Virus record (IMG/VR): IMGVR_UViG_3300020045_002935 | Span: 1 to 38,740 of that record | Strand: one strand, 5' to 3' | Origin: a virus | Lineage: Duplodnaviria > Caudoviricetes | DNA: 38,740 nucleotides | In this document: piece by piece, positions 8,077 through 36,528 of the stretch | How the letters are laid out: each line of letters begins with the position of its first letter | Numbering within the stretch: the stretch's first letter is position 1 | Position numbers and translations under genes: made by a program | The notes under the pieces: generated by a model | Seen by the model: only the letters and a program-made list of their open reading frames with translations | Told to the model about the DNA's origin: nothing | The model's database searches: none

Positions 8077-8107
8077 TTTGTTTATTAGCAAATAATTACT
8101 ATATTTG
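8077..8107 (+). promoter_or_regulatory. Promoter for the ncRNA/tRNA-like unit and downstream genes
   Basis: TTTG (8077-8080), N19, TATATTTG (8100-8107). Confidence 0.75.
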
Positions 8108-8109
8108 CA

Positions 8110-8313
8110 TGTGATTAAGATTGAAGCAACGAATAAATATATTACTCGAAATGCTGTGAGTAGTTTAAACCGATAACAGATGGAATTAGTCGGGTATTTA
8201 TAACTTAGGCATAAGTTAGTTTGTTAGATGTGTCATACTTCATTAAAAGAGACCACCCAAGGTAGTAATAGTAGATAGGTATATGATATTTCTTATGTGA
8301 GGACTTAATCACA
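8110..8313 (+). ncRNA. Candidate ~200-nt multibranched structured RNA
   Basis: 10-bp closing helix TGTGATTAAG/CTTAATCACA, several internal hairpins, no ORF in the track, begins at the predicted TSS. Confidence 0.6.
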
Positions 8314-8317
8314 AAAC

Positions 8318-8393
8318 TCCCCATTAGCTCAGTTGGTTAGAGCATTCAGGCGTAATAGTCCAGAGGTCGATAGTTCGAGTCTATCATGGGGAG
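8318..8393 (+). tRNA. tRNA-like element (Asn-like body, aberrant anticodon arm, no encoded CCA)
   Basis: Acceptor TCCCCAT/ATGGGGA+G; D arm GCTC-AGTTGGTTA-GAGC; T arm GATAG-TTCGAGT-CTATC. The anticodon region is 2 nt too long and mismatched. Confidence 0.75.
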
Positions 8394-8412
8394 CAAAAAC
8401 AAATCAATCACC

Positions 8413-8589
8413 ATGAAGCAACAATTACTTGAATTTCTAAAATCAGACAACCACAACTACCATCCGATAATATCGCTATTTGAGCGTTTCGGTGAATGTG
8501 AAAGTGTTTTATCTGAGTTAGTTAATGAAGGGTTTATTACTGAAAGAATGGGCGTAAATCAAAGACTTTTTAAATTTAAAGAAGTATGA
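8413..8589 (+). CDS. Small winged-helix-like protein
   Basis: LSELVNEGFITERMGVN. Start moved to ATG 8413 because 8386 lies inside the tRNA-like element. Confidence 0.55.
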   Translation: MKQQLLEFLKSDNHNYHPIISLFERFGECESVLSELVNEGFITERMGVNQRLFKFKEV

Positions 8590-8873: not shown

Positions 8874-9218
8874 ATGAAAAACACATTAATAAAAGATACG
8901 ACCCTTTCAATAAGGTGTATTAAATGTTTACATGCAGCTGATATAAACACAACTGTAGAATTAACGGCACACATTGAGAAATTCGGAATTTCCGATTTTG
9001 TTAAGTTTCGGCATTTTGGGTATAAATCATTTAATGAATTGAAAAAGTTTGTTGAAGAAAATAAGTTGATGAAAAACGAAATATCCGAAGAAGATAAAAA
9101 TTTAGCAATTGAGTTTGCGGAGTGGCATTTAAGATTGTTTGAATATTCTCATGAAAAGTGGGTTGAGCTTACAACTACTGAACTATTCACAAAATTCATT
9201 GAAAACCGTAATAAATAA
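8874..9218 (+). CDS. RNA polymerase alpha C-terminal domain-like protein
   Basis: LSIRCIKCLHAADI...KFRHFGYKSFNEL resembles the Bacteroidota RpoA CTD pattern (LSVRALNCLKAAD...KFRNFGKKSLTEL, recalled). Confidence 0.75.
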   Translation: MKNTLIKDTTLSIRCIKCLHAADINTTVELTAHIEKFGISDFVKFRHFGYKSFNELKKFVEENKLMKNEISEEDKNLAIEFAEWHLRLFEYSHEKWVELTTTELFTKFIENRNK

Positions 9219-36496: not shown

Positions 36497-36528
36497 TTTG
36501 CATATATGAAAAGATTATACTATCTTTG
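36497..36528 (+). promoter_or_regulatory. Promoter of the recombination operon
   Basis: TTTGCATATATGAAAAGA...TATCTTTG. Confidence 0.75.

Follow-up and report, generated by a model that had tools for sequence, protein, structure and literature searches.

The tRNA-shaped RNA gene at positions 8318..8393 (+) of the phage genome analyzed here carries an anticodon arm that, judged by sequence comparison, is conserved and not decayed. A preliminary description had called this arm broken; it is instead the most conserved part of the element, and it recurs letter for letter in two further records on otherwise different tRNA bodies. The element is very probably a maintained functional RNA, and there is good reason to regard it as a non-decoding one. 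Apparently, it is an undescribed variant of the phage tRNA mimics that is both real and conserved.

The window, meaning the whole stretch of DNA analyzed, is a virus record of 38,740 bases, rated complete and bearing direct terminal repeats, and genes for primase/helicase, terminase, portal, tape measure, and endolysin were identified in it. Because the closest cultured primases and terminases come mostly from phages of Flavobacteriia (Tenacibaculum, Olleya, Nonlabens, Riemerella), the host is likely a member of the Bacteroidota. The element is the single tRNA-like gene found in this genome by ARAGORN and Rfam, and it sits in a 347-nt gap amid small early genes. An ORF of unknown function (8413..8589, +), for which a start at 8413 is likely, opens a run of small genes preceding the terminase; the ATG listed for it at 8386 falls within the acceptor strand of the element. 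Two genes past the element, the N-terminal part of ORF 8874-9218 is a C-terminal domain of RNA polymerase alpha (PF03118, E 1.8e-9), and its product is possibly a transcription modulator.

The element comprises 76 nt up to the discriminator, without an encoded CCA, and has a canonical tRNA body. The acceptor stem (TCCCCAT, 8318..8324, paired with ATGGGGA, 8386-8392) consists of seven Watson-Crick pairs that include U1-A72, and homologues keep the pairing with free sequence. The D arm (8327..8343, +) has a 4-bp stem (GCTC/GAGC) and a 9-nt loop with GG, and the T arm (8369..8385, +) has a 5-bp stem (GATAG/CTATC) and a TPsiC loop, UUCGAGU. The 3′ acceptor strand runs into the discriminator G8393 (G73) and then CAA (8386..8396, +), so that the element ends in GCAA and CCA would require addition by the host. 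The perfect acceptor, D, and T arms, U1-A72, and G73 named in the preliminary description are all present in the sequence, as is the anticodon arm that it delineated, TCAGG-CGTAATAGT-CCAGA (8346-8364), whose stem has an A.A mismatch (8348/8362) and whose loop is 9 nt long. The rebuilt arm as a whole occupies 8345..8364 (+), with stem strands at 8346-8350 and 8360-8364, and U8345 is able to pair with G8365. Its loop, CGUAAUAGU (8351..8359, +), contains UAA followed by UAG and has GUAAU at loop positions 2-6, as in the GC-rich family described below. The statement that no anticodon can be read was too strong, as the central triplet is AAU, preceded by U and followed by a purine; ARAGORN, the check proposed, calls tRNA-Ile(AAU) at 8318-8394. 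Compared with a standard class I tRNA, the stretch from the D stem to the T stem is 2 nt longer, and in place of a 5-bp anticodon stem with a 7-nt loop there are a 9-nt loop, one mismatch, and the 2 extra nucleotides. Rfam model RF00005 scores the element at 28.1 bits against a cut-off of 29 bits, leaving the arm unaligned, and scores the two homologues with the same arm at 47.1 (L005) and 47.3 (L166). The folding z of the element is -2.0.

Both of these homologues bear the arm on bodies of their own. L005 is a 1.8-kb phage-like metagenome contig with a different body that ends in U73-CCA; the scan that found it fixed 12 of the 19 arm positions and gave 14 matches, one of them real and 13 due to chance, without a tRNA body. 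L166 is an element in a 96-kb phage rated complete, where the arm stands on a third body; it came from a looser viral scan that fixed 5 of the 19 arm positions, the remaining 14 being identical. Together with the window, these are the only three exact-arm records known. In each pairwise comparison of the window, L005, and L166, the arm (19/19) and the variable region (5/5) are identical, and the acceptor strands and T-stem strands have 1-2 of 7 and 1-2 of 5 positions in common, respectively. Invariant columns amount to 2/24 in the stems vs. 19/19 in the arm, and of the 12 pairs in the top half, 11 differ on both sides and none is broken. No other DNA common to the three was detected by blastn (E<=1e-3) in the sequence parts compared, and neither the terminase nor the upstream region of the window found a match in the L166 phage.

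A comparison of homologues for arm-specific conservation had been suggested, and it shows that the arm is identical at 19 of 19 positions, and the stems differ in a compensated manner. Since two independent records contain the identical arm, an assembly error in it is very unlikely. Random pseudogenisation had been rejected, rightly, on the argument that decay was confined to one arm; that argument does not hold, since the arm is conserved. A normal tRNA in relatives, which would have spoken for recent damage, has a partial counterpart in one wastewater contig (run X1) with a normal 17-nt arm of the Asn(GUU) type on this body, which may come from a relative of the phage or be a tRNA gene of a host. 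Contigs of runs X2 and X3 span the element ungapped, differ from it at 12 and 16 letters, and keep the 19-nt arm length. The arm is not strictly invariant, because wastewater contigs vary within it (the changes include A8357C and A8362G). No tRNA match exceeded the cut-off in two related phages, which show 38% identity in a neighbouring protein.

Acceptor identity does not agree with any one anticodon in this set. The identical arm is borne on G73, U73, and A73 bodies with differing first pairs, and hence no single synthetase identity fits. An identity for ThrRS, based on the C2-G71 pair common to the window and L005, was dropped, as L166 has U2-A71. A second odd-arm design, with a 21-nt arm, occurs in two records (L005 917-993, - strand, and L036 493-570, + strand), and L036 combines that arm with a body resembling the first L005 element; the sequences suggest that bodies and arms may have been swapped as modules. 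Two nucleotides past the CCA of the homologue in L005 lies a perfect 13-bp stem around 70 nt with tRNA-like remnants (1075-1170), which echoes the long-stem element upstream in the window.

The loop also recurs more widely. When viral sequences were scanned for a tRNA body carrying any 19-22-nt arm, 112 loci (L018-L129) with intact bodies were returned, in many recurring designs, several with central AAG, AAA, AAC, or GAU triplets. Among the 37 distinct 19-nt arms, the commonest core, obtained without bias, was TAATG at arm positions 8-12 (4/37; binomial p about 6e-7). A targeted scan with a pattern that included GUAAU returned 23 loci, 20 of them with a 19-nt arm; L163 and L165 (18 nt) and L179 (20 nt) were left out, and L088, L005, and second copies were added. 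The 19 distinct elements consist of three of the window type and 16 from phages of 55-66% GC. When these are aligned, 97.2% of cells are paired and 15 of 21 pairs vary on both sides; no shuffle or slid control attained the covariation score, the shuffles being uncorrected for relatedness. The 5-bp arm stem covaries and the loop stays constant, with the consensus M-G-U-A-A-U-R-R-Y (A/C-G-U-A-A-U-G/A-A/G-C/U) closed by a G-C pair in 19/19; the register was set on the stem, and the invariance of GUAAU is in part built in by the pattern. The discriminators are U (8), G (7), and A (4), and CCA is encoded in 12 of the 19. With the discriminator and first pairs varying freely and CCA encoded so often, a matured, non-decoding mimic is likely.

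Of the features of this set, the window's element has the 19-nt arm, the 5-nt variable region, the G-C-closed 9-nt loop, and GUAAU at positions 2-6. A perfect stem directly after position 26 is missing, the window's stem being shifted by one with the A.A mismatch, and the loop of the window subtype ends in AGU, that of the GC-rich family in GAC. Scored with a matrix from four unbiased members, the window's loop scored above 32 of 33 other arms, and 2.4% of random arms equalled it. Taken together, the sequences make for a moderate link between the window and the GC-rich set. Model R1 did not discriminate, with 66.5 vs. 65.6 bits for normal tRNAs.

Further copies were sought in several collections. 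Scans of IMG/VR, in which the window's own genome and genomes very close to it may not be represented, gave no match to the strict D arm plus a 19-20-nt arm, to the D arm plus the arm core, to the stem end plus the tRNA start, or to the promoter plus the 5′ stem. A single IMG/VR match to both stem arms of the upstream region placed 170-200 nt apart was discarded as a chance occurrence within a gene, with no tRNA. Across 185,579 prokaryote genomes, the D-arm-plus-loop pattern had 30 matches, none with the long arm; because all of them were normal tRNA-Thr genes or 5′ remnants, the design looks viral by this one exact pattern. In Desulfovibrio-group genomes (L134, L139-L141, L145, L146, L159), the 5′ half of tRNA-Thr(CGU) is followed by a conserved foreign stretch, an arrangement typical of an integration remnant. 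Among the matches listed for cultured phages and plasmids there were only ordinary tRNAs, and the arm alone was unmatched; the upstream region matched these sequences at the promoter only. The GUAAU arm was not found in the Pth2 regions of Myrna, Catera, and LR756500, in a parse that missed many annotated tRNAs. A related 34-kb phage record (L016 2215-2447, - strand) has a permuted tmRNA (RF04321 over the cut-off; ARAGORN tag peptide). In the accessible main texts that it covered, the literature search found no description of the arm or of its association with Pth2-like genes.

We infer an RNA that is matured and does not decode, with its top half recognized by shape and its loop by sequence. 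As to the specific mechanism, we tentatively favor a decoy, that is, bait for a loop-reading, tRNA-targeting host enzyme, and give this proposal somewhat under an even chance. The RNA would be transcribed from a promoter at 8077-8107, excised by RNase P and a 3′ nuclease by way of the normal elbow and acceptor, and supplied with CCA by the host. It would then present the 9-nt loop, with its GUAAU core, to a sequence-specific protein; the core may be taken to resemble positions 34-39 of tRNA-Thr(NGU) or positions 32-36 of tRNA-Ile. The partner would most plausibly be a tRNA-cutting or tRNA-modifying defence effector, which would be tied up with decoding undisturbed. According to several studies, hosts attack the anticodon loops of tRNAs and phages counter with tRNA genes (PMC7824862, PMC11464382, PMC11555353, PMC10264068). 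The T5 tRNA-Lys is described in one of them as a non-cleavable variant that counters PARIS (PMC11464382), and in another, on a phage tRNA-Tyr and the PtuAB of retron Eco7, changes to the anticodon or stems abolished protection (PMC11555353). Since these proven counter-defence tRNAs act by replacement, the analogy counts against a decoy; one might also look for a normal 7-nt loop in a good bait.

The GC-rich loci bring in a different partner. A Pth2-like ORF lies within 13 of the 14 distinct GC-rich loci; four of these ORFs had served to build the profile, and two reach only about E 1e-3. Of five ORFs tested, four exceeded the cut-off of Pfam PTH2. The proteins match solved Pth2 enzymes and, from a reading of motifs (L175:1571-1915, L176:1151-1483, L160:1029-1364, L179:1696-2076, L181:1086-1430), retain AQxxH and EPD and have neither GK nor DAG; these phage proteins may be non-catalytic RNA binders. 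Upstream of the element in eight of the 14 loci, at a distance of 37-370 nt, is a leader ORF of 2-6 codons ending in CAT-TGA-C (L160, L168, L169, L170, L172, L174, L175, L088); a ninth was seen by eye (L176). The order is leader ORF, hairpin, odd tRNA-likes, and Pth2-like gene, and the leader looks like a termination-sensing attenuator. Neighbouring tRNA-likes in the GC-rich loci are likewise odd-armed. Loci L020 and L027 and the L029 group also adjoin Pth2-like genes; the leader occurs in L179 and L020 as well, and two leaders end in GCT-TGA-C.

These neighbours would suit a helper in ribosome rescue or peptide release, in which a CCA-ended mimic would enter the A site, stalled or empty, with no need of a codon and bring about release or drop-off of the growing peptide, partnered in the GC-rich phages by the Pth2-like protein. 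We consider this unlikely, although it accounts for more than the Pth2-like ORFs: the leader resembles a termination sensor, amino-acid identity is not fixed, the loop reads UAA and then UGA or UAG in 17 of 19 elements, and phage PTH2 has been tied to ribosome rescue (PMC7824862). The double stop, however, represents two independent states only, and an anticodon loop, being antiparallel to mRNA, could hardly serve as a message. The complete phages of the window and L166 have no PTH2 match, and the CAT-TGA-C leader is likewise absent from both. The absence of GK and DAG from the Pth2-like proteins weighs against a release function as well.

An unusual decoder, with an AAU anticodon on a stem plus one non-canonical pair or with a 9-nt loop that reads five bases or shifts frame, is a less likely explanation still. 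It is favored by the U before and the purine after AAU in 19/19 (the U being fixed by the pattern), by the ARAGORN call of Ile(AAU), by the frequency of AUU in the window (37.7 per 1000 codons, a common codon there), and by the low-efficiency five-base decoding reported in engineered systems (PMC11122139). On the other side stand the same arm on G73, U73, and A73 bodies and a G at position 32 in 18 of the 19 elements, where a pyrimidine is expected. AUU is also rare in three GC-rich carriers (5.5-11.5 per 1000), one of which has a tRNA-Ile(GAU) of its own. In one carrier phage, 27 ordinary tRNAs, including Ile(GAU), Thr(CGU), and Tyr(GUA), form a separate array about 58 kb away.

The preliminary description had raised two roles. 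One, a decoy for tRNA-targeting defence nucleases, accords with the mechanism tentatively favored here; the other is a processing tag, at whose ends RNase P and a 3′ nuclease would cut to release the RNA before it and the mRNA behind it, and in which the arm would be a passenger. A predicted Bacteroidota-type sigma-70 promoter (TTTG, 19 nt, TATATTTG; 8077..8107, +), based on the consensus for these bacteria, lies in the intergenic gap as a motif match; across the window the motif occurs at seven sites vs. 4.3 by chance, which is not significant. Two promoter-like sites elsewhere, 1208-1239 and 36497-36528, have their first 16 nt in common, which suggests a duplicated early promoter. Ten perfect base pairs (8110-8119 with 8304-8313) close the stretch 8110..8313 (+), which is separated from the element by a 4-nt linker (8314..8317, +), whose C at -1 is able to pair with G73. 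An 8-bp acceptor formed in this manner (N-1 with N73) holds for the three exact-arm records and was rejected after it failed, by eye, across the wider set.

The 4-nt spacing given earlier for the upstream RNA is right, the 3′ arm of the stem ending at 8313; its status as an ncRNA is only that of a candidate, since the whole-region folding z is -1.2 and shuffling of the spacer produced a perfect inverted repeat of at least 10 bp 15 times in 300. An Rfam search with 8110..8313 gave no match, and the idea that the upstream region is a piece of a permuted tmRNA was rejected, as neither ARAGORN nor Rfam matched. In contigs of runs X2 and X3, 8128 is joined to 8289, so that both stem ends are kept and the middle differs, a weak hint, with sides of the joint just 34 and 19 letters long at 80% likeness. 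The interior of 8110-8313 varies among wastewater contigs, with joints at 8128-8289 and 8143-8195. A GTG at 8111 begins a 21-codon frame, and the 8-mer GTAATAGT from the anticodon loop is found again at 8265-8272. Among sequencing runs, no RNA run is listed as containing the element, and one run guessed as RNA has, at depth 2, a piece of 126 nt that is identical to 8096-8221; this does not count as evidence that the region is expressed.

For a tag speak the 4 nt that separate the element from the long closing stem, the 19 nt to the next likely start codon, the non-coding stretches with long-stem elements in which the L005 and L166 copies also lie, and a top half that keeps its structure and drifts in sequence. 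As the main role, however, a tag is quite improbable: it leaves unexplained the invariant arm, the conserved loop on a covarying stem, and the CCA encoded in 12 of 19. On the preliminary description's own premise, RNase P and RNase Z ignore the arm that is here held constant. The identical arm moreover has other neighbours in L005, where a gene lies directly upstream, and in L166, whose phage lacks the upstream RNA. Processing may well be a side effect.

Least probable of all is functionless debris, a damaged tRNA-Asn or tRNA-Thr whose three exact arms stem from the recent copying of a 30-nt block: the tRNA-Asn-like body (U1-A72, G73), the X1 contig with a normal Asn(GUU) arm on such a body, the mere three exact copies, and the two related phages without a tRNA match would agree with it, but it requires that a defective block was transferred twice, independently, to bodies with all stems intact, it fails for the 16 GC-rich elements, where the stem covaries and the loop stays, and contigs of X2 and X3 keep the 19-nt length despite substitutions. 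The probability left after the decoy and these four alternatives falls to other roles.

Going further than the decoy, one may conceive of an undescribed family of tRNA-sized RNAs in phages of very different hosts that serves translation counter-defence through its enlarged loop of conserved sequence, whether as bait or as a codon-independent 'release tRNA', and that would stand in an operon with a Pth2-fold protein and a stop-sensing leader in GC-rich phages and alone in phages of Bacteroidota. So broad a proposal is speculative, and we think it rather unlikely in full. A free body with a fixed loop is the reverse of what decay would leave, and the pattern in the sequences would point to a specific binding partner. 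Annotation tools label such genes tRNA-Ile(AAU) or pseudogenes; the 9-nt loop on a covarying stem offers a precise handle on non-decoding phage tRNA look-alikes, and the link to Pth2-like genes and leaders provides a ready test system.

By its body, the element is nearest to tRNA-Asn(GUU), with which it has in common the 7-bp acceptor, U8-A9, the 4-bp D stem, the 5-bp T stem, and the T loop, together with U1-A72 and G73, which are identity elements of tRNA-Asn. It differs in an arm longer by 2 nt, the 9-nt loop, the A.A mismatch, and the lack of GUU in the loop. The discriminator of tRNA-Ile is A73; the element has G73, and A occurs in four of the 19 members. The N-A-U of tRNA-Ile, with U33 and a purine at 37, has its equivalent in U-AAU-A, but within a 9-nt loop. 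The tRNA-like domain of tmRNA, the YrlA Y RNA, and the T4 species 1 RNA combine an intact elbow and acceptor with the lack of a standard anticodon arm. Unlike tmRNA and YrlA, the element lacks a tag ORF and a stem for Ro binding, and neither Rfam nor ARAGORN matched such RNAs anywhere in the window; unlike all three, it keeps the size of a tRNA and a loop conserved in sequence.

Among systems described in bacteria and phages, the allo-tRNAs also depart from the standard cloverleaf, but they alter the acceptor/T branch (8/4 or 9/3), whereas the element keeps 7/5 and alters the anticodon arm (PMC5389517). The tRNAs of Lak megaphages carry conserved 'enigmatic introns' (PMC6784885); these too are extra tRNA sequences of Bacteroidota phages, conserved between records and of unknown function. 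The excess in our element is 2 nt with no removable insert, and it is the body that varies and the arm that is fixed. Closest in their plausible role in translation conflict are the phage-encoded counter-defence tRNAs with an altered anticodon arm, namely the T5 tRNA-Lys, the tRNA-Tyr, and the mycobacteriophage tRNAs, for which loop variants are reported (PMC10264068); a phage tRNA-Lys is likewise stated to counter PrrC (PMC11555353). As far as these sources go, such tRNAs do decode, have normal loops, and take the place of the host tRNA, whereas the element described here is likely non-decoding. If it does act as a decoy or as a release helper, it would represent an RNA counter-defence distinct from that of the proven replacement tRNAs.
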